The notes under the pieces were generated by a model. It was not told the origin of the DNA, ran no database searches, and saw only the letters and a list, made by a program, of their open reading frames with translations. Below, piece after piece: positions 1,920-41,342 of a DNA stretch of 41,342 nt. Source of the DNA: Escherichia coli (GTDB lineage Bacteria > Pseudomonadota > Gammaproteobacteria > Enterobacterales > Enterobacteriaceae). Made by a program: the position numbers and the translations under genes. The DNA lies in the NCBI GenBank assembly GCA_026712295.1, contig GCA_026712295.1_4694.1. One strand, given 5' to 3'. The first letter of the stretch is position 1. The number at the start of each line of letters is the position of its first letter.

Positions 1920-2072
1920 TCATTCAGTAGCAGCTAACTCAGCTTCCTTTCGAGCCTTGTTTGCCGCACGGGTACGGGCAGCTTTCTGTTGTGGCGTTAG
2001 CTCTTGCTCAGCTTCAGTAAGGGACTCAGTGTCCCCTACGAGTTTGCGAGAAGTTAAGCCTTGTTGAAAACC
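1920..2072 (-). CDS. 10B: Putative capsid 10B C-terminal extension reached by -1 frameshift
   Basis: Heptamer GGUUUUC (minus strand, 2066..2072) four codons before the 10A stop; the -1 frame stays open ~46 codons to TGA at 1920-1922, just upstream of the terminator. Confidence 0.45.
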   Translation of the reverse strand, partial: GFQQGLTSRKLVGDTESLTEAEQELTPQQKAARTRAANKARKEAELAATE

Positions 2073-3332
2073 AGCGCACCACATGCTTCAGGGCGCAGAC
2101 CACCGTGACCCATAGCATACTTAGCGATAATCTGGTCTGCTTGGAAGTTAGCTCGACGAGCACGTTCCAGTGCCATATCTTTCAGCTTAACAGTACCAAC
2201 GGCAGAGCGGTGATTGAACAGACCGACAACGTTGTCCAGAGCAACACGGGTGTCACCAGAGGAAGTCTTAGGGAACGCATGTTTCTGACCAGTCGGATTT
2301 GCACCCTCTTCTGGACGGTCTTCGCCAGCACCACCAGCAGTCAGATGCGGAACCTCAATAACTTCGAAGCCCATAACGTTGCGGATAGAGCCAGTAGACG
2401 GGTCAATCAGAGCCTGATAGTTTGCAGCGTTAGGCATCAGAGCAGCCAGAATAGCAGAGTAGTTGTCTGGAGTGGTGTAGAACACACGGTCAGCAGACGG
2501 AACATAGTTGCCAGTCAGCTTGGCACGAGCCAGAGTTAACTGTGCGATAATAGCCTGACCCAGCTTAACTTGGTCTCCCCGAAGCTCAGACTGCTTGCCA
2601 ACTTCCAGTACATGAGCCTTACCGAGACCAGCGATGTTCTCGTTAGACGCAGACGGCAGGTTACACAGTTTAGCCATTTCAGCCAGAACCGCGCCATCAG
2701 CAGCCATCGCAAGAGATTCACCCAACTGTGCGGTATACTCGGAGCGCACGTCATAGTGGTTCATTGCGTCTTCGATGTCGTAAATCAGAACGTCAGCAGT
2801 CAGCAGACCATCAATGTTAATGGTACGCTCAGTGTGCTTCATGTCTTTACGTTTGTCATCGAGGTTCTCACCCGGTTGCAGGTAAGCAGCTTTGGTACGA
2901 CCCAGCACAGGGAACTGCGCGGACTTACCGGACTGGATAGAGCGAACAAGGTGTTTGTTCATAGTTACGGAGGTACGGGTAAATGCAGTCAGAACTTCAC
3001 CACCGAAGACCTTCAGGAACAGAGCCAGTTTATCACCAGCGCTCATACCTTTACCTTGGTCTTTAAGTGTGCTTCATGTCTTTACGTTTGTCATCGAGGT
3101 TCTCACCCGGTTGCAGGTAAGCAGCTTTGGTACGACCCAGCACAGGGAACTGCGCGGACTTACCGGACTGGATAGAGCGAACAAGGTGTTTGTTCATAGT
3201 TACGGAGGTACGGGTAAATGCAGTCAGAACTTCACCACCGAAGACCTTCAGGAACAGAGCCAGTTTATCACCAGCGCTCATACCTTTACCTTGGTCTTTA
3301 CCCATCTGTTGTCCACCATTCATGCTAGCCAT
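2054..3332 (-). CDS. 10A: Major capsid protein (gp10A), reading frame interrupted by a 235-bp tandem duplication (track ORFs 3063..3332 and 2054..3046)
   Basis: N-terminus MASMNGGQQMGKDQGKG (T7-tag-like) with RBS AGAAGGAGA; downstream ORF matches T7 gp10A throughout (GLLTADVLIYDIEDAMNHYDVRSEY, RANFQADQIIAKYAMGHGGLRPEA); removing one repeat copy restores a 347-aa frame. Confidence 0.9.
2831..3300. repeat. Perfect tandem duplication, 2 x 235 bp (2831..3065 and 3066..3300) inside gene 10
   Basis: Both copies read identically from agtgtgcttcatgtc to ccttggtcttta; unit length is not a multiple of 3. Confidence 0.95.
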
Positions 3333-4517: not shown

Positions 4518-6122
4518 ATTTGGAACCATTCCAGCCTGTTCAGCAGCCGCTTGCATGTTCTCAGGGCTTGCAGTGGCAAGTGCACCAGCACCAGCACCAG
4601 CAGACGCAGCAGCGTTCTCCATAGCCGTACCCTGTGCAGCCTCAGCCATCTCCTGTTGTTTCTCTTCAGGTGTCTTAAGGATACCGGAAGTGTCGATGCC
4701 GATAGCGTTCGCAATGCGCAACTTAATGGTCGCAATGTTGATGTCCGGGTCATTCTGCATAGGAGCAAGAGCAGACCAAGCAGCAATACAACGTTCCAGC
4801 TTATCGAGGTCTTGACCACGACCCAGTGCTTCCATCCCGGTACTGATAGTAGGCTCAACGGCCTCTTTCGGTAGCTCAGGAATCTGATTGGTCGCTTGAA
4901 GTTGCTTCAGCAGGACACGAACCATTGGCAACTGAAGTTCCTGTGAGAGAATCGAATAGACACCACCAAGGGTATCTTCGAGTTCAGATGCAACATATCG
5001 AATCTCTTCGGCAGTCACACGCTCACCAGTGCGTTGCACAGCGGAGTTCAACATAAAGGCATAGGACAGTCGGCCCTCAATCTGTTCACTCACAGCTTTC
5101 GCTACAGAGAAGTCTGCGGCCTTTTCAAGCTGAAGGAACGAGATGTCTTCTGGACGACCAGACACGAAGTCACCAGTCTGTGCTTTGGTCAAACGACGAA
5201 CCTGTGTGATACCAGCCGGGTTAACCAAGCCAATAACTTTAGCACTAATCATTGACATCTTAACGATAGCTTCTTGGAGGTTCTCAAGGGACCGTAAGTC
5301 ACCTAAGTATTCCTCACAGTAAGAACGACCATATGATTCTCCATCAATGCGTACCATGCGAACCGGGATATAAGGACAAGCGTCCACCGGATAAGAAGCA
5401 TCTGTACCATCGACTTCAACACCATCAATCTCTTCGTACTTGAGGTACTCACCAGATTCTTCGGCAAGATAAATGTGAGTGTACACATCAATCATTTCGT
5501 CGCCTTTATGTTCCTGACCGGAGTCCATAGAGTTTCGAACGTCTTCTGGAAGTGCTGCATAGGCAGTCTTATCTAAGGTTACAATCTGTAGCACCGTGCC
5601 GAATGCGTCTCGTTGGACAACATAAGAAGACAGGCGGTATAGCTTCATGGGATTGTAAGTACCTTCAGGTTCAGGAATGTAGAGCAGAGCGTTACCTGCA
5701 ACGACCAACTGCTTGAGGGTCTCAAAGAGTGTCACACGGTACGAGTTGGACTCGATGTAGTTCATCAAGATTCGCTCGACCATTGAGAGACCTTCTTCGA
5801 CCTTCGCTAGTTCGGCTGGCTGTGCAACCAATTGTTTCGCTTCGAACTCAGAGATGGTCAGCTTCATCCACGTCTGCATAGGGAACAGAGCGAGCATGAG
5901 CTTAGAGGCCAAGTTGTTCAAGCCACGAGCGCCAACTGCTTGCCACGGAGTGGTGTAGTCAGTAGAGGCGTTGTCGGAGTCTTTAGGGAACAACGAAGGG
6001 ATGGTGTACTTCGCACAGTTTTCCGCACGGGTCTCATAGGAGTTCCGGTCGTTCTTCAATGCGTCATACACCGCCTTGGCACCATTCTCAGCGAAGCCTT
6101 CACGTTTCTGTGAGCTTGCCAT
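4515..6122 (-). CDS. 8: Head-to-tail connector / portal protein gp8, 535 aa
   Basis: Long identical blocks with T7 gp8 (YTIPSLFPKDSDNASTDY, GESYGRSYCEEYLGDLRSLENLQEAIVKMSMIS). Confidence 0.92.
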   Translation of the reverse strand: MASSQKREGFAENGAKAVYDALKNDRNSYETRAENCAKYTIPSLFPKDSDNASTDYTTPWQAVGARGLNNLASKLMLALFPMQTWMKLTISEFEAKQLVAQPAELAKVEEGLSMVERILMNYIESNSYRVTLFETLKQLVVAGNALLYIPEPEGTYNPMKLYRLSSYVVQRDAFGTVLQIVTLDKTAYAALPEDVRNSMDSGQEHKGDEMIDVYTHIYLAEESGEYLKYEEIDGVEVDGTDASYPVDACPYIPVRMVRIDGESYGRSYCEEYLGDLRSLENLQEAIVKMSMISAKVIGLVNPAGITQVRRLTKAQTGDFVSGRPEDISFLQLEKAADFSVAKAVSEQIEGRLSYAFMLNSAVQRTGERVTAEEIRYVASELEDTLGGVYSILSQELQLPMVRVLLKQLQATNQIPELPKEAVEPTISTGMEALGRGQDLDKLERCIAAWSALAPMQNDPDINIATIKLRIANAIGIDTSGILKTPEEKQQEMAEAAQGTAMENAAASAGAGAGALATASPENMQAAAEQAGMVPN

Positions 6123-6136
6123 TTAGCGCCTCCTTG

Positions 6137-6505
6137 TTAGATATTAAGACCACCGCCAGAACTACGAGCGACACTCAGTGATTTCTTACCGCCAGCACGG
6201 GCTTTCTTCTTACCGGATTCAGTCTGTGCATCATCATCGGAGTCTACATCGTCTTTACTCGGTGGCTCGATAATTTGTGCAGCAGGAGGTGCAGCTTGAA
6301 CGGCAGCAGCGGGTGTCTCAACCACCTGTACATCAGGCTTACCACCACCAGCAAGTGCACCAGCAACGCCACCAACGACCTTACCAGCTTCCTTCCCGAC
6401 CTTCTCGACTGCCTTACCAGTTTCCTTGACTACCTTCTCGATAGGCTTGGTTACTTTCTTGATAGCCTTCTTAACTGATTTGCGAATCTTTTTACCCCAA
6501 CCCAT
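6137..6505 (-). CDS. 7.3: Lysine-rich virion/tail protein gp7.3-like, 122 aa
   Basis: C-terminus ESGKKKARAGGKKSLSVARSSGGGLNI as in T7 gp7.3; AGGAGG RBS. Confidence 0.7.
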   Translation of the reverse strand: MGWGKKIRKSVKKAIKKVTKPIEKVVKETGKAVEKVGKEAGKVVGGVAGALAGGGKPDVQVVETPAAAVQAAPPAAQIIEPPSKDDVDSDDDAQTESGKKKARAGGKKSLSVARSSGGGLNI

Positions 6506-25117: not shown

Positions 25118-25547
25118 GAGGTGACATAAGGTGATAACTCTAGGGTCACTTACAGATAGGGACACAGAGAGGACTACATATAGTGGTCATAAGGTATCAC
25201 TAAGCACCATATCTAGTGGTTACACCTAGAGTTAACCCAATGTCTCACAAAAGGATTGACTTCAGGTAAACCATGAGTTACCATAGAGGAAGGCTCTTTG
25301 GGTGGACTGAAGGAGGCCATAGGGGGGGGGGAGAGGTGACATAAGGTGATAACTCTAGGGTCACTTACAGATAGGGACACAGAGAGGACTACATATAGTG
25401 GTCATAAGGTATCACTAAGCACCATATCTAGTGGTTACACCTAGAGTTAACCCAATGTCTCACAAAAGGATTGACTTCAGGTAAACCATGAGTTACCATA
25501 GAGGAAGGCTCTTTGGGTGGACTGAAGGAGGCCATAGGGGGGGGACT
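25118..25547. repeat. Two adjacent copies of the direct terminal repeat (~214 bp each, 25118..25332 and 25333..25544); junction marks the linear genome ends
   Basis: Copies identical except terminal G-run (10 G vs 8 G); internal motif ACAGATAGGGACACAGAGAG is shared with the T7 terminal repeat; CATAAGG heptamers flank both sides. Confidence 0.8.
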
Positions 25548-25952: not shown

Positions 25953-26108
25953 AGAGCGTCCTCCTTGTTATACTTGATGGTTACACTGATAGTAGGGATG
26001 TAATTACTATTACCATCATCCCTCACTGTAAGGTCTCTAAGAGTTAGTCACTAAGTATGCACTTTGCATATGCAGTCTTTAAGTGTCTTTAAGTTGTCTT
26101 AGGGTGCC

Positions 26109-26131
26109 CTTCCCAATAGTGAGTCGTATTA
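26109..26131 (-). promoter_or_regulatory. T7-type promoter (phiOR-like), duplicated copy
   Basis: Minus strand TAATACGACTCACTATTGGGAAG. Confidence 0.7.
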
Positions 26132-26397
26132 ATTTCTTCATGTATATCAGTAAGTTACTTAACGGTAACGTAGCGGTACTAAGTGCTTACCTATGCACCT
26201 TTCCCGCATACTTATCTATTACCACTCAATGAAGCAGCTAGAGTCTCCATCATCCTCATAGTAGATGTCCACGCCACCAACATCGTAGCTATGGATAGCA
26301 TCACCACCAATGGTCTGTTTCTCCATGTGGTGTTCAAGGAACTCAAGGGTCATCTCTTCTTCAATCTTTAAGTGTCTTTAAGTTGTCTTAGGGTGCC

Positions 26398-26420
26398 CTT
26401 CCCAATAGTGAGTCGTATTA
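26398..26420 (-). promoter_or_regulatory. T7-type promoter (phiOR-like, right-end promoter downstream of gene 19)
   Basis: Minus strand TAATACGACTCACTATTGGGAAG. Confidence 0.75.
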
Positions 26421-26507
26421 ATTTCTTCATGTATATCAGTAAGTTACTTAACGGTAACGTAGCGGTACTAAGTGCTTACCTATGCACCTTTCCCGCATAC
26501 TTATCTA

Positions 26508-28265
26508 TTACCACTCAATGAAGCAGCTAGAGTCTCCATCATCCTCATAGTAGATGTCCACGCCACCAACATCGTAGCTATGGATAGCATCACCACCAAT
26601 GGTCTGTTTCTCCATGTGGTGTTCAAGGAACTCAAGGGTCATCTCTTCTTCACCTACACGGCTGTCCACAAGCATCCCTTCACGAAGGAACTCGATACCC
26701 AATGCGATAGCATCAATGCGGTCATCGTGTGCCACAGCGCCTCGCTCACGGGTCATACGGGTCATCTGATAGAACGCACTGTAGCGGACATCATGTTTCC
26801 CATCAAGGTCACGAGCAGTCTGGTAGTCCTCACGGATAACCTCATCACGAATGACCAGCTTGTGGGCACCCATCAACGGTTCGATAGTATCGCAGATTCG
26901 CATCTCCTTCATGCCCTTAGCACGGATTTCCTCTAAGGCACACTTATGGTGCTTCAGGAGAATCGGAGAGAAAATCTTACCGAACATACCGTCACCGAAG
27001 TTGGACTCGTGGACTACTGTCTGTACCTTCCACTGCTTGGCCTTCTTAGCGAGCTTCTCTAGGGTAGCATCATCGTAACCACCACGGAACCCACCGACTT
27101 CCATCAAGTAGATATAACCATTAAGTGAGTAGAGGACTGCGTACCCGGTCTCATCCTTACCACGACCACTTGGGTCAATGACCAGAATCTTAGACTGATA
27201 CTCAGCGGTACGAGAAGAGCACGTATGGAACGCATGGATGTCGTCACCCTTCAGACCAACGTTAGGGAGTTCCTCATTGCGGTTCTGACGGTTCGGCAAC
27301 CACTGGTAAGACAATGGGGCACGTTCAGGGTCCACAGCGCACACGATAGCATCACGGAGTCGTAGCGGGTACTTCTCGGCATCACTAAGGTTCGGGTTAA
27401 GCATGAACTGAAGTGTGTAGCCAGCTTTACCATATTCGAGTTCACGTTCACGGAGGTCATCCATATCGAATCGAACAGGGTCAGTAGGTTGACCGCGAAG
27501 TAACTCATAGCCTTCATCATACTCTTGCTTGAGCATAGGAGCCAGTCGGTCGCCATAATAGAGAGCCTCAGCGTCATTACGTGGATACTGTGCTGGCCAG
27601 ATTACTGTGCTGTACCCTTTGTTATCCTCAAGTTCCTTGTAGAGCGTCATCTCAGTTTGAGGTGTGCCAAGGTAGATAACACGAGAGGTAGGCAGCGGCT
27701 TAAGTAATGCAGCGAACTCAGTTACCAACGTCCAGAGCTTCTCACGAGCAGAACTCGTAGAGCTATTACCGGGAACCTCAACGTCATCTGCGATAATGAT
27801 GTCAGCACGGCTACCAGTTAACTGACCAGTGATACCTACAGACTTCACAGAGGGTGAGTGGTCGGGTTTAGCCAAGCCAACATCGAAGCTAATCACGGAG
27901 TCACGCTGTCCCGGTCGAGGTTTCAACTCAGAGAGGAACGGAAGGAGGTCGATGATGTTCTTGATGAAGATGGAGTTAGCATCAGCACGTTCCTTAGAGG
28001 CAGACACGATGAGAACCTTAAGTTGAGGGTCTCGCCATAAGACCCACACGACGAACGCACAGGTGATAAAGGACTTGCCGATACCACGGAACGCCTGAAG
28101 GATAAACTTCTTGTGGTCGCCGTTAGCGAGTGTACGTGCCATATCAATCTGACACTTGGTTGGTTTAGGTAAGTTCAGAGCCTTCCATAAGACGAACAGG
28201 AAGGCCACGAAGTCACCCTTAAGTTGCGCCACGATGAGCGCATTCTTGTTTGCTTGAGTAGACAT
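26508..28265 (-). CDS. 19: Terminase large subunit (DNA maturase B) gp19, 585 aa
   Basis: Walker A-like GIGKS, strong similarity to T7 gp19 (one residue shorter than T7); GGAGG RBS. Confidence 0.95.
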
Positions 28266-29896: not shown

Positions 29897-32105
29897 TTAT
29901 TGGTTTTGAACTAAGATTCGCGTAGGGACTGAACGGGCGTCTTTGTCGTTACGGAAAGTTCTGCCGTTGTTGGAGATTGTGAACTTCAACCAACCACCAT
30001 CAGACGCGATGAAGTAAGCCGCATTGTCACCAATAGGAACGGCGTTCCAGCGACCATTGGTCTGAATCCAGATGGTTCTCCAACGAACATCCTGTGAGAG
30101 ACCTACCGAGACACCACCACCAGCATAGCCTTTCCAGACCTCAGCCCACCCAGCATTCTTATTGACGTATCGACCATCAGCTTGCGCTTGAGTTAACCGT
30201 CCATTGACTAGGTTGTTTACTTCGCTTTTATTGTAGGCATGTTCTCCAAGGCGTTTGTTGACCCAACCGTCGATGTAAGAATCATACTTCGTGATGTATA
30301 AGTTACCATCTGGTGGAATGTACCAGCCTGAGTTGGATGTTAATGTACCATTTGAATCAAACGTATACTCCCTGTTAGCTGCCTGACCAAAGTTAAGCCT
30401 CCACGCCCCAGCGCCGGGGTCTTTGTAAAGATAACCATCGGTGTAGTTATCGCTGGTTTTCATTTGAATATGTCGACGAGCAGAGTTAATCATCAGCAGG
30501 TTCTGTGAGCGAGTCTGTAAGATTCCAGTGAAGTCACCTGATTGTCCAACCGTAAGCCCACCAGCAGCCTCCATATGTCCATTCACTCGCATCTGGCAAA
30601 ATGTGTCGTTAAGGTTAGCCTTCTGGATATACATATAGTACCCATTACCGCTACCACCTAACTCAAATACGTTTGCACGTCCTTGGTCATTCCCCCATAC
30701 GAAGAACCTCATATTTCTATCAGCGAAGTTCTGGTTCACAAGCTGCAACGAGTTCCTTGTTAACACGCTAAACGATTGACCTGCGCCAGCCCTTACTTCC
30801 TTTTCACCAGTAATCTGTCCGGGTGCTACAACATCATTCTTAAAAACAACGTTCTCACCATTAACCGCTTTAATGGTTCCCGCTAAGTTATTCATATTCC
30901 CTAACTTGTCAGCCTCGGTCTTTGCACGGTCAGCTTCACTCTTGGAGCGGTTTGCCTCAGTGTTGGCTCTGTCAGCATGTCCATCAGCGGTAGCAACGTG
31001 TGCAGCGGCTTTGGCAACCTCAGCAGCAGCCTTAGTCACTTCTCCGGCAGCACGATTGGCCTCATCACGGGCACGATTGGCCTCAGAGTTAGAACGGTCA
31101 GCTTGCTTCTTGGCCTCAATTCTTAAAAACAACGTTCTCACCATTAACCGCTTTAATGGTTCCCGCTAAGTTATTCATATTCCCTAACTTGTCAGCCTCG
31201 GTCTTTGCACGGTCAGCTTCACTCTTGGAGCGGTTTGCCTCAGTGTTGGCTCTGTCAGCATGTCCATCAGCGGTAGCAACGTGTGCAGCGGCTTTGGCAA
31301 CCTCAGCAGCAGCCTTAGTCACTTCTCCGGCAGCACGATTGGCCTCATCACGGGCACGATTGGCCTCAGAGTTAGAACGGTCAGCTTGCTTCTTGGCCTC
31401 AGCTACACTTGCGGTCATACTATCAGCATAACCTTTAGCTCGGTTAGCCTCAGAGTTGGAACGGTCAGCTTGCTTCTTGGACTCAACCGCCTGTGCCGTA
31501 GAGACACCTGCCTGTTGGGTTGAGCGGTCAGCTTCACGTTTTGCACGGTCAGCTTCATCTCGCGATCGGTTAGCCTCAGTGTTAGAGCGGTTAGCGTGTT
31601 CATTGGCCTTGTTAACAGCGTTCCAAGCAGACGACTCGCGCTCTTTTACTTGCTTCAGAGGGACAGCATCGTAGTCACTGGTAGCGAACGCTAGGTTCAC
31701 AATCTTACGACCACGGGCATCCAAGTGACCATCATTGTTGACACCAATGGTATCCGCAGTTAGGTCTCGTGCCTCTTCAGCTACGTGCAGCGTCTGAATC
31801 TGTGAGATGTTAAGGTCATACGCACGAAGGATTGAGCCATCAGCAAAGTCAACCAGACGGTCGGTTGCAGAAGTGAATCGACGAATCTCAATCATCTGAT
31901 AACCATCGGCAGCAGTCCACGCACGGGAGGTTGTGATTTGGGTCTTAGTGGTAAAGCGATAGTCCTGATTGAGAACCAACTCTTTACGGTCTTTCCCGAT
32001 GAGTGTCACTTGGACGAACTTACGTGCTAAATACTCAAAGGTAATCGTGAAGTTCACGGCACCGTTCAGCGGGTAAGTACGTACAGTGGAAATTTTGTTA
32101 GCCAT
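29897..32105 (-). CDS. 17: Tail fibre protein gp17, reading frame interrupted by a 283-bp tandem duplication (track ORFs 31116..32105 and 29897..31144)
   Basis: N-terminus MANKISTVRTYPLNGAVNFTITFEYLARKFV and DRLVDFADGSILRAYDLNISQIQTLHVAEEARDLTADTIGVNNDGHLDARGRKIVNL match T7 gp17; C-terminus YFIASDGGWL; removing one repeat copy gives a 641-aa frame. Confidence 0.88.
30836..31401. repeat. Perfect tandem duplication, 2 x 283 bp (30836..31118 and 31119..31401) inside gene 17
   Basis: Both copies identical from attcttaaaaacaacg to gcttgcttcttggcctca; unit length not a multiple of 3. Confidence 0.95.
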
Positions 32106-32177: not shown

Positions 32178-35100
32178 TTACTTCTTGTCAGCCTTAATGT
32201 GAACACCGTTGGCCTCATAGAACTTAATGAGCATCTGTTGAGAGATTGGATCGTTAGGAATCATCTCTCGGTGAGCATTCATTAAGCCAGTCATCATCTC
32301 ACGCTCGGTCGGTTTGTTAGGAGCCGTAAGGACACCATAAGCATTTCGACCAGTAGCTAGAGCAGCACCAGCGAAGCCAAGAGCAGGAACCTGTTCACCA
32401 ATAGCGCCCATAATGGAATCACCCATGTCACGAGAAGTCACCGCCTTGTTGCGCTCACGCTTGTCATCACCTTTCGGTAGAATCGTAGAGCGAACCATAA
32501 GACCTTGGTCGTAACCAGCAGCACCCATAGCGAAGTTAGCGATACTCAGAGGCGACCCTAAGTGTGAACTTCGGGAGGCCGCAGCGTAGGCAATCATCTT
32601 CGGGTCGAGAGCTTTCTTCAAGTAATCCTTCTGTTGCTCTTTAGGAAGACCAGCAGCCTTCAAGTGGGCCTGTGCCACATAGTAGGAGCCAGCGATACCA
32701 CCAGAGATTGCATAGGTCAGCGCCATGTCCATAGCACGCTGGTTCTTAAAGGCTTCGTGACCGGAGCGGATAAACTTAGAGTTCATCGACTTGATGACAA
32801 ACGACTTAAACTGAAGGACTAACTTAGCGGTGGCACCAAACGCATGGGAATCCTGTAAGGAAACCTTATGAGGTCGAAGCATCGTTTCATCAGCAACCTT
32901 GTCAGCCAAACGCCACAAGTCCATAGCACGAGGGTCATTAGCCAGAGCCTTCTTATCCTTGAAGGTAAACTTACCATCTTCCCCACGGGTAACGTTCTCA
33001 CGGATGAGAGCCTGAATGCCTTCCCACTGTTCCTTAGAGATACTCGCAGACTTCAACATGTCACCTTTAATCCACTTGTTGGCACCCTTTCCAGTGATAG
33101 CATGAGTTACCACATCACCCATCACACCCTGTCGGGCCATGTCCAGAAGGTAGTTTGACGTACCATTGAGGAACTTGGTGAGAGGTGAGCGAGCCGCCAG
33201 TTCTTGAGTTGTGTGCTTGATAGAACCAACAACCTTTGCGGCAACATCAGGTGTATCAGTGGACTCACGGAGTCGCTGAATGATGTCTTGACGAGTAGGT
33301 CGGACTAAGTCATCAAACTCTTTACCGAACACCATAGAGTGGAGTTCTTTGAGTTCACTACCAGAGACTGGCTTGTTGCGGAACGCTAAGTCACGCAGTA
33401 CCGGAATGCCATGAAGCATCGCACGGATATTACCCTTCTGCAACATACCGGAGATTTCGGTTAGGTTCTGCAAGCCCATATATGCGTTCTTCGTGAAGAA
33501 GGACATATCGGACAGAGCACGGACCATAGTGTCACCTACAGTATCCTGATTGCGTCGAGCACGACCAGTGACAATCTTAACGACATCCTTAAGTGCTTCC
33601 ACTTCACCTTTCATTGTACCTTTACCTTCAGACTTCTTATCAAGAGCCATAATAGCGTCCTTGAGTTCAGCAGTAGTCTTACCTGTGCCTCCCATGATAG
33701 CAATATCACCATCAACACGGCGGTCATATGCTGGCATCACATGCTTCATATCGAAGTCACGGAGGTCATTCACAGAGAACTGTTGCCCGTTCGGTAGAGT
33801 GATTGGCACGTCAGAATCAAACAGGTTACGGGCTTCAAGGAATGAGTTGTTCTCAATCCCAACGAGACCCTCAATGTTATCGTCAATGACACTTGAAGAG
33901 TTGAACTCATCGGTCTTCGTAATACCGTAAGCCTTGTCCATAGCGTACTTCTCGACCATATCCATAGTCACCTCTTGTACTGATTGAGGTGCATTACCCG
34001 ATGTGGCTTCACCAACGATAGTGTCTTCACCGCCACCAGTAGTCTTCTGCCCTTTGGCAGCAGAGGCGGCTTCCTCAGCTTCGGCGGTTGCTTTGGTGAT
34101 TCTGTCTTGGACCTTAGCAGCCTGTCCTTTCATGTAGTCGAGACGCTCTGTGTTAATACGGATGTGAGACTTCTGGGTCTCAATCATCTGCTTCCGGCTC
34201 TCAATCTTAACAGGAATGGTTTTGCTATTAGGTTTAGCAGCTAGTTTTTCTTCCAACTCCTTCAGTTTAGCCTCATGCGAAGCCAGTCTGTCCTTGGAGT
34301 TCTGGAGTTTCCTTTCACGGTCCGCAACTCGCTTCTCAGCGTTGGTCATGACGTCTTTTAGTTCCAATACCTTATCACTTGCCTGTGTAGCTGTATCGTC
34401 CAGTTTCATCTGGTAACTTGCTGTGTTGACAGAAGAGGGCTTATTGGGTGTAGTACCCGCAGTCTTACCCGCTGGTTTGGATACCCGTAACTGCTCTGCC
34501 AGCATCTCATCAATACGGGCCTTAACTTCAGGGCGTGCATGATATGATGCCATCAGGCTTGCAGCAACTGCTTCCTGTAAACCATCAGTGCCCCCAAGAG
34601 CCTGTGAGTACAACTGCTTGGCTTCCCGTGAGTACACATGAGGAACGTAAGTCCCTTTGTGACGACTGTTAGGGAAGATAGAGGTGGCCTTGTTACCGAA
34701 CATCGACGGGTTCTCCATCATCTCACGCTTGAGGTCATAGTGTTCCTTCACGATGTCCATCACCTTACGTTCTGCCTTGGTCAAGTTGGCCTGAAGTTCA
34801 GGTCTCTCGATAGCCTCACTAGTACGACGATAGATTTGTTGACGGGCACCTTGAGCACCACTCTTGAACATACCAACAGACCACTCAGGGTCAGCCATCG
34901 CTTCCTTCATTGCACCATATAGGTTATTGTAGGTTCGATGATTGAGACTGCGCAGTCGCTCTATGATGTCCGATGTAGTGGAACCAAACTTACCATGTGA
35001 GCCTGACTCCATACCTGTAGGTGAACGCACTAAGTCCTTAGCGAGACCACGGATTTCAGCATGTTCAGAACGTAAAGTCCTCAAGCCGATTTCACTCAAT

Positions 35101-36623
35101 CCACGCATAGGCAAGCCCCACGCAGCACGTTCAGGGTCTACTTCTTCGAACTCTTTGGCTGTCATCGGGTTAGCCAAGTTTGTGTCACTGATAATGGAAC
35201 CATCACGCAACACTACAGCACCCGGTTCAGTTTCCAGTGGTGCATACTCAACGCCGTTGTGCTGTGAGAACACTCGGTCTTCACTAGGAGGCATACGGCT
35301 TGCGTCATAACCACCAGTGTTACGTGCAGTCTCACGAGTCTCAAAGCGCATCTGTGCAGCAGCAAAGGGGTTCTCAATCTGTTCAGCACCAGACTTACGG
35401 AGACCCGCAGCAACGCCATCTGCCACAGAAGTCAGTCCACCAGCCAGTAACATCCCAGCAAGGGCAGCTTCAGCATAATGTGCATCACCACCAGCAACCG
35501 ATGTACGCAGACCTTCAGAGGCAACGTTAAGTGCACCAGCTTGAGCACCTACAATCAACGCCTTGTTAACCAGCTTGAACCCTTTAGCCGCAGTCCCAGC
35601 GATAGGAACGTAGGTCAACGGGTCAACACCAGCACCAATAAGACCAGCAGACAGCTTGGCACCTAGACCCGCATCAGCAGCCTTAGAGTCCAACTCGAAG
35701 TTCTCATTAGCCATCTTGATTAGCTCGTCAAGGTTCTCAGCGGAACCACCAAGCACAACGTTCATGTACGCAGGGTTCTTCACTTCTTTGCGAATCTTAT
35801 CGAGTTCTTCAGGCGACCAAATGTGGCTGTTAAACCGTGTCGGTTGAAGTACATCAGTGAGCACATCAAAACCATTGTCACGCTTACCAGCACGGAAGGC
35901 AACACCCAAGGTTGAGTTTGAGAGTTCTGCTTCAGCAGCACTACCGAATCCGAAGAAGGTTGAACGCTCGTTTGCTTCGTCAAGAGTTGTACCTTTGGCT
36001 TCCCAATAATCTTTTCCGAACGGCTGATTGGGAGCGGCCTGTTCTTTACCTTGAAAGGACATTTCGTGAGACTCAGGGAGTTCAGTTGTTACCTTTCCTT
36101 TCTTCCCGATACCACTCATCGCAGCATCAAACGGAATCCCTTTACCCTTTGGGGTGATACCACCGAATGACTCGATGTCCCCACTCTTAGGTGACTTAGC
36201 GACATCCAGAAGTGAACGCAGATAGTTACGACCTTCATCACCGATGCCAGCAAAGTTACCAGAATCGTAGGCTTCCAGTTGTGGCTTACCGTTGCTCCCT
36301 TCACCTTGGTTGTACGCTAGGGCAGCTTTAAGTTCATCCCCATTGTATTTCTTAACGAGGTCTGCAAGGTAACGAGCACCAGCATCAATGGACTTAGCCG
36401 GGTCAGCGAAGTCCTCATCGTTCTGGAGACCATAAGCCTGACCAGTTGCCTTAGTGAACTGCATGACACCTCGTGGCCCTGTTGGTGATTGAGCCGTAGG
36501 TTTAAAGCGGGACTCTACCCAACCGACCTTCCGAAGAAGGCCATAGGAGACTCCATGTGTGTCAGCAGCTTGTTGAAATAACGCATCATATTCATGCGAT
36601 TCGTTCGGGTTATACTTATCCAC
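32178..36623 (-). CDS. 16: Internal virion protein D gp16 with N-terminal lytic transglycosylase domain, 1481 aa
   Basis: GTG start with AGGAGG RBS; N-terminal SLT motif (GLLRKVGWVESRF...GPRGVMQFT), long identity blocks with T7 gp16; ~160 aa longer than T7 gp16. Confidence 0.9.
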   Translation of the reverse strand: MDKYNPNESHEYDALFQQAADTHGVSYGLLRKVGWVESRFKPTAQSPTGPRGVMQFTKATGQAYGLQNDEDFADPAKSIDAGARYLADLVKKYNGDELKAALAYNQGEGSNGKPQLEAYDSGNFAGIGDEGRNYLRSLLDVAKSPKSGDIESFGGITPKGKGIPFDAAMSGIGKKGKVTTELPESHEMSFQGKEQAAPNQPFGKDYWEAKGTTLDEANERSTFFGFGSAAEAELSNSTLGVAFRAGKRDNGFDVLTDVLQPTRFNSHIWSPEELDKIRKEVKNPAYMNVVLGGSAENLDELIKMANENFELDSKAADAGLGAKLSAGLIGAGVDPLTYVPIAGTAAKGFKLVNKALIVGAQAGALNVASEGLRTSVAGGDAHYAEAALAGMLLAGGLTSVADGVAAGLRKSGAEQIENPFAAAQMRFETRETARNTGGYDASRMPPSEDRVFSQHNGVEYAPLETEPGAVVLRDGSIISDTNLANPMTAKEFEEVDPERAAWGLPMRGLSEIGLRTLRSEHAEIRGLAKDLVRSPTGMESGSHGKFGSTTSDIIERLRSLNHRTYNNLYGAMKEAMADPEWSVGMFKSGAQGARQQIYRRTSEAIERPELQANLTKAERKVMDIVKEHYDLKREMMENPSMFGNKATSIFPNSRHKGTYVPHVYSREAKQLYSQALGGTDGLQEAVAASLMASYHARPEVKARIDEMLAEQLRVSKPAGKTAGTTPNKPSSVNTASYQMKLDDTATQASDKVLELKDVMTNAEKRVADRERKLQNSKDRLASHEAKLKELEEKLAAKPNSKTIPVKIESRKQMIETQKSHIRINTERLDYMKGQAAKVQDRITKATAEAEEAASAAKGQKTTGGGEDTIVGEATSGNAPQSVQEVTMDMVEKYAMDKAYGITKTDEFNSSSVIDDNIEGLVGIENNSFLEARNLFDSDVPITLPNGQQFSVNDLRDFDMKHVMPAYDRRVDGDIAIMGGTGKTTAELKDAIMALDKKSEGKGTMKGEVEALKDVVKIVTGRARRNQDTVGDTMVRALSDMSFFTKNAYMGLQNLTEISGMLQKGNIRAMLHGIPVLRDLAFRNKPVSGSELKELHSMVFGKEFDDLVRPTRQDIIQRLRESTDTPDVAAKVVGSIKHTTQELAARSPLTKFLNGTSNYLLDMARQGVMGDVVTHAITGKGANKWIKGDMLKSASISKEQWEGIQALIRENVTRGEDGKFTFKDKKALANDPRAMDLWRLADKVADETMLRPHKVSLQDSHAFGATAKLVLQFKSFVIKSMNSKFIRSGHEAFKNQRAMDMALTYAISGGIAGSYYVAQAHLKAAGLPKEQQKDYLKKALDPKMIAYAAASRSSHLGSPLSIANFAMGAAGYDQGLMVRSTILPKGDDKRERNKAVTSRDMGDSIMGAIGEQVPALGFAGAALATGRNAYGVLTAPNKPTEREMMTGLMNAHREMIPNDPISQQMLIKFYEANGVHIKADKK

Positions 36624-40038: not shown

Positions 40039-41342
40039 TTAGATACCAGAAGAACGACGCAGGTAGTTACCCTCCCAGCCACAACCAATAACGTTCAGTG
40101 GCGTAGTATGGTCAGAGATAATACGTACTTCATTCAACTGTGCGTTGCCAGCGACCGGGAAGCGGAACTGACCAGTACCAACATTAAGCCCACCAGAGCG
40201 TAACGCATTGGAACCCAAGCGAGCACCCGCCATGTCATAGCTGAACAGTCGAGAGGTGTTCTCCACTTCTACAGTGAATGCACCAGAGTCCTCATAGTTC
40301 ACCCACGCTCGGCGTAACTGCAAGCGCCCAATACCCTCGGTAGCTGTCGAGCCATCATCAGCAGTCTTCTTGATGAGGAACTTAGAGAACACATAACGGA
40401 AGTTGATAGCCAAGCCAACGTAGATTGTCTCATCCTCACGGTTCCCACTCATTGACAACACAGGGACACCATTAGGCCAACCACCACGCGGAGGGTCGAA
40501 CCACGAGACCTGACCATCAGAGGCCACAATGTAGAACCTACCAGTCCAATATTGCATCCCATAGATGTCTACAGGCTTCACAGTGGTAGTGTAAGTGTCA
40601 TCGTTGTAGGCACCTTTAGGAATCACATACTTTATCTTGTTGTCGATGTACAGCCGATATGGTTCATCGTTGAAGTCAATGGAGTTCTTCGTAAAGTGTG
40701 CTCGGCACATCCAAGTGTGGGACTGGTTGCGCAACACAAGGTACATCGTTGAGCCGATAGAGTCACAAGCCAGAACCGTTACGTTACTTCCAAGTTCCCA
40801 ATGTGACCACGACTGTTGAGCAATCTCTTCGTTGAGGTACAGGAATTTGTACAGGAAGATTTTACTCGGAGCGTTCGCAGAGAGCACGGAGATAAAGTTC
40901 TCAGTACCGGAGCCACGAATGGAGAACACACCGTTCGGAATGTAACTTGGAACGTGAGCACTCATATCCTCAGCAGACTTCACGGAGCTAACATCCTGTA
41001 CCGCATAGTAACGGTTAAGTGACGTATAGGAAGCACGAGGTGACGCAAAGTACACACCACGCCCAACGCCAAAAGGTCTCGCTCGGTCTGACACATCGAA
41101 CTCTGTCGTGAGGTTCAACTCTACTGACTTCGGTGAGAGGATACCTTGAGCAGACAACACGAACTGTGCTTGGTCTGACCATAGGAGCAACTCTTCGGAG
41201 AACGGTACAGCGTACTTCAGGATAGAGATTCGGTTATGGGACACAGCCACGTCAATTGGGTCATCGTCGGACAGGTTAGCCACGGACGCAGGGAACAGTG
41301 AGAAATACTTTGATGTACGGGACATTACAATGTTCTCACCAG
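40039..41342 (-). CDS. 12: Tail tubular protein B (gp12), C-terminal part; N-terminal part is at 1..1234 across the circular wrap
   Basis: C-terminus GCGWEGNYLRRSSGI identical to T7 gp12; the track start at 41325 is an artefact of a t/g mismatch with the window-start copy (CTG Leu at 140-142). Confidence 0.9.
   Translation of the reverse strand, partial: GENIVMSRTSKYFSLFPASVANLSDDDPIDVAVSHNRISILKYAVPFSEELLLWSDQAQFVLSAQGILSPKSVELNLTTEFDVSDRARPFGVGRGVYFASPRASYTSLNRYYAVQDVSSVKSAEDMSAHVPSYIPNGVFSIRGSGTENFISVLSANAPSKIFLYKFLYLNEEIAQQSWSHWELGSNVTVLACDSIGSTMYLVLRNQSHTWMCRAHFTKNSIDFNDEPYRLYIDNKIKYVIPKGAYNDDTYTTTVKPVDIYGMQYWTGRFYIVASDGQVSWFDPPRGGWPNGVPVLSMSGNREDETIYVGLAINFRYVFSKFLIKKTADDGSTATEGIGRLQLRRAWVNYEDSGAFTVEVENTSRLFSYDMAGARLGSNALRSGGLNVGTGQFRFPVAGNAQLNEVRIISDHTTPLNVIGCGWEGNYLRRSSGI
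41184..41342. repeat. Window-edge overlap: 41184..41342 repeats 1..159 (circular wrap), one mismatch
   Basis: 159-nt identity except g at 142 versus t at 41325. Confidence 0.95.

Follow-up and report, generated by a model that had tools for sequence, protein, structure and literature searches.

Gene 17 and its tandem repeat

The locus considered here is the tail fibre gene (gene 17) of a T7-like phage, carried on a 41,342 nt stretch of Escherichia coli draft assembly that we refer to in full as the window. Gene 17 sits between gp16 and the gp17.5 holin, and the order gp16, gp17, gp17.5 holin, gp18 is as in T7. In T7 gene 17 is a single ORF, whereas in the window it is interrupted as written, and the interruption coincides with a tandem repeat. 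The features concerned are as follows.

31116 to 32105, minus strand: 329-aa ORF, comprising gp17 residues 1–329 followed by a TGA that we regard as artefactual
29897 to 31144, minus strand: 415-aa ORF, comprising an out-of-frame ATG and nine residues that we regard as spurious, then gp17 residues 236–641
30836 to 31118, minus strand: repeat copy 1, the downstream copy in coding orientation
31119 to 31401, minus strand: repeat copy 2, the upstream copy in coding orientation

A sequence-only reading of this DNA had reported two identical 283 nt units at this site, and that description is correct in every particular. The units are 100% identical (Tandem Repeats Finder, 2.0 copies, score 1132) and their edges are exact, with no further matching bases to the left or to the right and hence no microhomology at the junction, where CTTGGCCTCA is joined directly to ATTCTTAAAA. 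An adjacent, perfect repeat of 283 nt cannot be attributed to chance. With one copy removed the site would read ...CTACAACATC followed by ATTCTTAAAA..., and ...GGCCTCA followed by GCTACAC....

The consequences described for the reading frame also hold. As 283 equals 3 × 94 + 1, the second copy shifts the frame of gene 17 and brings in a TGA, thereby generating the apparent ORFs of 329 and 415 aa. In coding orientation the junction is AAG AAT/TGA GGC, and the stop codon is formed by the three bases with which the downstream copy opens. The unit begins at nucleotide 705 of gene 17 and codes for residues ∼235–329, which correspond to the distal part of the alanine- and arginine-rich helical shaft and ∼25 residues past it. 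This segment lies downstream of the Phage_T7_tail domain (PF03906), which Pfam places at residues 1–154 of the 329-aa ORF (E = 1.9e-50). The 415-aa ORF holds the end of the shaft, the pyramid and the tip, and no convincing Shine–Dalgarno sequence precedes its ATG at 31144.

When one copy is deleted, gene 17 becomes 1926 nt long and encodes a protein of 641 aa, which is longer than the 553-aa T7 fibre, as had been predicted from the sequence. The collapsed protein is colinear with T7 gp17 over its full length at 37% identity; its shaft is ∼88 aa longer than that of T7, like those of other members of the genus Berlinvirus. Uninterrupted fibres of relatives measure 642–674 aa (643 aa for QMV34442.1 of Enterobacter phage PZJ0206), and a collapsed length of 641 aa is normal for the genus. 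Residues 541–641 match the crystal structures of the T7 gp17 tip (4A0T and 4A0U), and the fibre also matches 7BOZ. The underlying gene is thus an ordinary Berlinvirus gp17.

Two origins for the second copy had been left undecided, namely recombination and assembly error, and the repetitive shaft had been proposed to favour either. In the first case a genuine tandem duplication, produced in the shaft by replication slippage or illegitimate recombination and then fixed in the genome, would have inactivated the fibre. In favour of such an event, the gene has internal imperfect repeats; the repeat is perfect, as a very recent duplication would likewise be; and the edge at 31401 has an exact 22 nt shaft repeat ending 5 nt away. 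However, nothing of the kind is found near the other edge, the junction is devoid of microhomology, and the out-of-frame (3n+1) unit places a TGA in the only fibre gene. The repetitiveness of the shaft can thus account for one edge at most.

Five redundant segments in one window

A repeat search of the whole window revealed what the sequence-only reading had overlooked: the 283 bp repeat is one of five. The remaining four are listed below.

2831–3065 and 3066–3300, minus strand: 235 bp repeat, 100% identical, in the major capsid gene gp10A
25118–25329 and 25333–25544 (span 25118–25547), strand unassigned: ∼215 bp repeat with 212 identical bases
26073–26361 and 26362–26650, minus strand: 289 bp repeat with one mismatch, covering the 3′ end of terminase gene 19 and sequence downstream
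1–159 and 41184–41342, minus strand: 159 bp overlap of the window ends with one mismatch, inside gp12

All five are 99.4–100% identical and 159–289 bp long, and apart from 2 nt at the 289 bp repeat there is no microhomology past their edges. Three of the four internal repeats have a length of the form 3n+1. One record carries five similar repeats of arbitrary length that are placed irrespective of gene function or reading frame. The 235 bp repeat (also 3n+1) splits the capsid gene into ORFs of 89 aa (3063–3332) and 330 aa (2054–3046), whereas gene 19 is intact despite the 289 bp repeat. The ∼215 bp repeat is non-coding, located around the predicted genome end, and its copies differ in the length of a G-run (10 versus 8).

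That the record holds four more repeats of this type, and that one of them disrupts the capsid gene, argues against a genuine duplication in gene 17. A phage in which the capsid and fibre genes are both frame-shifted would not be viable and could not be propagated. Reducing all five repeats to single copies shortens the sequence by 1,181 bp to 40,161 bp, which falls within the range of the genomes of the relatives compared (39.3–40.8 kb). This collapse restores a capsid protein of 347 aa, one residue unlike that of a near-identical sister phage, as well as the 641-aa fibre; with circularisation it also restores a gp12 of 792 aa across the ends of the window.

The repeat at the window ends resembles the terminal overlap that is known from circular contigs, since positions 1–159 recur at 41184–41342 and are present once in sister loci. 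Unlike a plain k-mer overlap, however, it contains one mismatch, and it lies within gp12, away from the physical ends of the phage genome.

Comparison with public Berlinvirus genomes

The window is a T7-like phage of the genus Berlinvirus, circularly permuted and in reverse orientation. Its nearest public relative is PZJ0206, which is 96% identical over the fibre region. Across the genome the alignment blocks are 90–98% identical, and the large blocks that border the joins are 94–97% identical. The two sequences are colinear except for backward jumps in the PZJ0206 coordinate at exactly the five repeat sites.

235 bp repeat: 18538 to 18304
∼215 bp repeat: 393 to 182
289 bp repeat: 1200 to 916
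283 bp repeat: 5673 to 5427
Across the window ends: 15617 to 15459

Both copies of the 283 bp unit accordingly align to the same bases of PZJ0206 (5427–5673).

Searches of public collections gave no second instance of the arrangement. The 283 bp region has no match in complete E. coli genomes, its only match among PLSDB plasmids is a Yersinia one at 82.5%, and there is no 100% match in the phage, plasmid and complete E. coli genome collections. A 47-mer spanning the junction has no match in IMG/VR. The 329- and 415-aa fibre fragments, the 330-aa capsid fragment and the window gp16 (1481 aa) are absent from the public gene index.

The gp16 gene itself differs in length among relatives. The product encoded in the window (32178–36623, minus strand) has 1481 aa, as do those of PZJ0206 and the sister loci. 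A length of 1315 aa is found instead in BSP161 and 285P and in almost every complete gp16 call on ten metagenomic relatives with the same holin. These lengths imply an insertion of ∼166 aa, which is possibly a Lys/Glu-rich helical stretch around residues 700–860.

Near-identical phage copies in E. coli drafts

Using look-ups with the exact gp15 protein and the 641-aa fibre, and then with gp9 and gp19, we recovered a sister set of eleven loci (L016–L026) on nine contigs of five E. coli draft assemblies (GCA_026712305, 325, 335, 415 and 435; prefixes JAJCTQ, JAJCTP, JAJCTS, JAJCTU and JAJCTT). Identity to the window is 98.5–100% per aligned block and mostly >99.7%. A fibre from an E. coli assembly (P0001, 641 aa) is identical to the collapsed window fibre at 636 of 641 positions. 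Wherever a sister locus spans one of the five sites, it contains the sequence only once, as follows.

283 bp site: single copy in L017, L022 and L026, with flanking blocks 99.7–99.96% identical
235 bp site: single copy in L018–L021
289 bp site: single copy in L022–L026
∼215 bp site: single copy in L022, L024 and L025
159 bp end overlap: single copy, read straight through, in L017–L020

In L017, L022 and L026 one 283 nt stretch matches both copies of the window, and the annotated gene 17 product of L017 and of L022 is an uninterrupted protein of 641 aa. That sister assemblies are single-copy at the gene 17 site is further evidence against a genuine duplication. At the 289 bp repeat the two copies are told apart by an odd base at 26364, 3 nt away from the join, where the other copy has the base found in all five sister contigs. 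Errors are over-represented at contig ends (PMC5368935), and the position of this base fits that known excess.

Sister loci also differ in length from the window in the gp7.3 region (6293–6365), which has GCACCAGC-rich repeats. In L018 62 nt are missing and gp7.3 has 100 aa versus 122 aa, and in L020 and L021 52 nt are missing and there is further rearrangement. These differences may reflect either real variation in repeat length or another assembly problem.

Five draft assemblies of E. coli isolates contain a T7-like phage of strictly lytic type, in full or fragmented contigs, which suggests carrier-state or co-culture samples. The drafts also contain some frame-shifting single-base indels, which split the portal, capsid and fibre genes in the JAJCTQ contigs.

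Single-N junctions in the sister scaffolds

The sister loci bear near-perfect tandem repeats of their own, 206–374 bp in length and at positions other than those of the window. There is one in L019, there are five in L023, and several occur in L025 and in L021. At all eight of the sister junctions inspected, exactly one N stands between the two copies. A lone n is the way in which some scaffolders record a negative gap that they could not resolve. The single N is a scaffold gap, and the sister repeats are the butt-joined ends of overlapping contigs. Many N-marked false duplications of this kind are found in the sister drafts.

The repeats of the window are like those of the sisters in their similar size range, their blunt edges and their indifference to genes. 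The window differs from the sister scaffolds in containing no N at all, whether at its joins or elsewhere. Scaffolding as the source of the window repeats is therefore proposed by analogy, from their likeness to those in assemblies of the same phage. That the equivalent sister repeats sit on scaffold Ns also weighs against a genuine duplication, and taken together with the evidence above it makes fixation of such a duplication in gene 17 extremely unlikely.

A different possibility is that a minority of molecules carry the junction, either as defective carrier-state genomes or as chimeric or self-ligated library fragments, and that it was taken up by the assembler. The sister samples are indeed mixed, since several alleles of the fibre tip coexist in one assembly, and blunt, microhomology-free units of about fragment size (159–374 bp) would fit ligation artefacts. 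However, the N at the sister junctions means that there was no read sequence bridging them, which argues against real junction molecules, and the window can be explained without any. We consider this possibility very unlikely. A slimmer chance attaches to the more specific proposal that the junction is real in part of the population, with defective genomes carrying short duplications that persist by complementation in carrier-state E. coli cultures. In that event gp17 fragments sharing a 94-residue shaft segment might even co-assemble into a split fibre.

Finally, the window may have been stitched outside an assembler from overlapping amplicons or hand-ordered contigs whose overlaps were kept. 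Manual stitching would leave the same signature of backward steps, arbitrary overlap lengths and missing Ns. It is a variant of the assembly-error explanation favoured below and looks the same by sequence alone, but the sister assemblies point to an automated scaffolder, and we regard its probability as next to negligible.

Where the contigs may have ended

Of the ten repeat edges, just two have an exact repeat of at least 22 nt nearby. One is the edge at 31401 described above, and a 25 nt phage-promoter consensus lies 38 nt from 26362. Short internal repeats, including those of the shaft, are thus a weak explanation for the contig ends and at best a partial one.

The terminal repeat was predicted by alignment to the annotated 194 bp terminal repeat of BA14. 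The predicted left end, beginning TCTCATAGTTCAT..., is at window position ∼25568 on the minus strand, and the predicted terminal repeat ends at ∼25373. The ∼215 bp window repeat (25118–25547) overlaps the region homologous to the BA14 terminal repeat, and we considered whether it represents terminal repeats in head-to-tail arrangement. This candidate was rejected, as the duplicated unit leaves out the first 24 nt of the predicted terminal repeat and continues ∼40 nt beyond its end. Within the predicted terminal repeat, the poly-C/G run that is 8 and 10 nt long in the two window copies is 9 nt long in three sister contigs, and a contig starts at the poly-C run both in the window and in L023, which suggests that the homopolymer run breaks the assembly.

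The PZJ0206 record (L005, MT625440.1) has a repeat of ∼277 bp at 116–393 and 40250–40526, and its copies would be 115 nt apart if the record were circularised. An assembly overlap left untrimmed around the terminal repeat is the probable cause.

Variation in the fibre tip

Differences between the window and the sister loci (L017 and L022–L026) cluster at 29937–30126 on the minus strand, corresponding to gp17 residues 566–629. At least 10 distinct substitutions occur here; every one of them changes the amino acid, synonymous changes being absent, and four replacements of A629 are seen (V, D, Y and N). Tandem copies in JAJCTP...53 carry differing fibre-tip alleles; this sample is a mixed population in which allelic contigs have been strung in series.

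The variable positions align to T7 residues R477, G479, G480, P511, I517, A518, D520, A539, D540 and S541, and lie in the domain solved as 4A0T. In T7, residues G479, G480, D520, A539, D540 and S541 are tip positions involved in host range, most of them explicitly in exterior loops (PMC8043750). The variation in the tip is real and is separate from the repeat artefact. The pattern of substitutions has the appearance of selection on receptor binding that is still in progress in mixed cultures of phage and E. coli.

A model for the origin of the repeats

Taken together, the sequence comparisons indicate that the 283 bp repeat is very probably a false duplication derived from the un-merged ends of overlapping contigs. 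This judgement rests on the four additional repeats, including the one that breaks the capsid gene, on the backward steps relative to PZJ0206, on the single-copy state of the sister loci, on the repeats flanking an N in the sister scaffolds, and on the normal genome length and the three ORFs that are regained by collapse. The real gene 17 is almost certainly intact, and the repeat itself is almost certainly not real biology. The earlier statement that a duplication breaks the fibre gene is consequently accurate for the ORF as written, but the cause is to be sought in the assembly, and of the two origins left undecided by that reading the evidence strongly favours assembly error.

In the process that we envisage, a Berlinvirus genome of ∼40.16 kb would have come out of the assembly in five or more contigs, each overlapping the end of its neighbour by 159–289 bp. 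These contigs would have been ordered and oriented correctly and then butt-joined rather than merged, such that each overlap came to be written twice in tandem. Copy 1 of the gene 17 repeat (30836–31118) would close the contig that comes in from the lower-coordinate side, and copy 2 (31119–31401) would open the next contig. As the length of an overlap bears no relation to codons, the join would shift the frame of gene 17. The joins in the window may be free of N because the gap was ‘closed’ or the N removed. The software responsible and the cause of contig overlaps longer than a k-mer are points that we infer.

Among the recognised types of assembly error are false duplications (Ko et al., 2022, PMC9516828), and scaffolders have been documented to place gaps between contigs that in fact overlap (Briskine and Shimizu, 2017, PMC5368935). 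As in the window, the published cases have an adjacent second copy of sequence that should occur once, and give rise to false gene fragments. They differ in that they come from large eukaryotic assemblies (PMC9516828, PMC5368935), whereas here the record is a 40 kb phage affected five times. The sister scaffolds share with them the flanked gap placeholder, which the joins of the window lack.

If the repeats have this origin, three conclusions drawn from the window at face value are false, namely that the fibre is split or inactivated, that the capsid gene is broken and that the genome measures 41.3 kb. Annotation, counts of pseudogenes and work on host range or receptor-binding proteins would need one copy of each repeat to be removed first, and the same problem touches several public drafts that contain this phage. 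The occurrence of several perfect tandem repeats of 150–400 bp in one small genome may serve as a flag for such records that can be applied without access to the reads.
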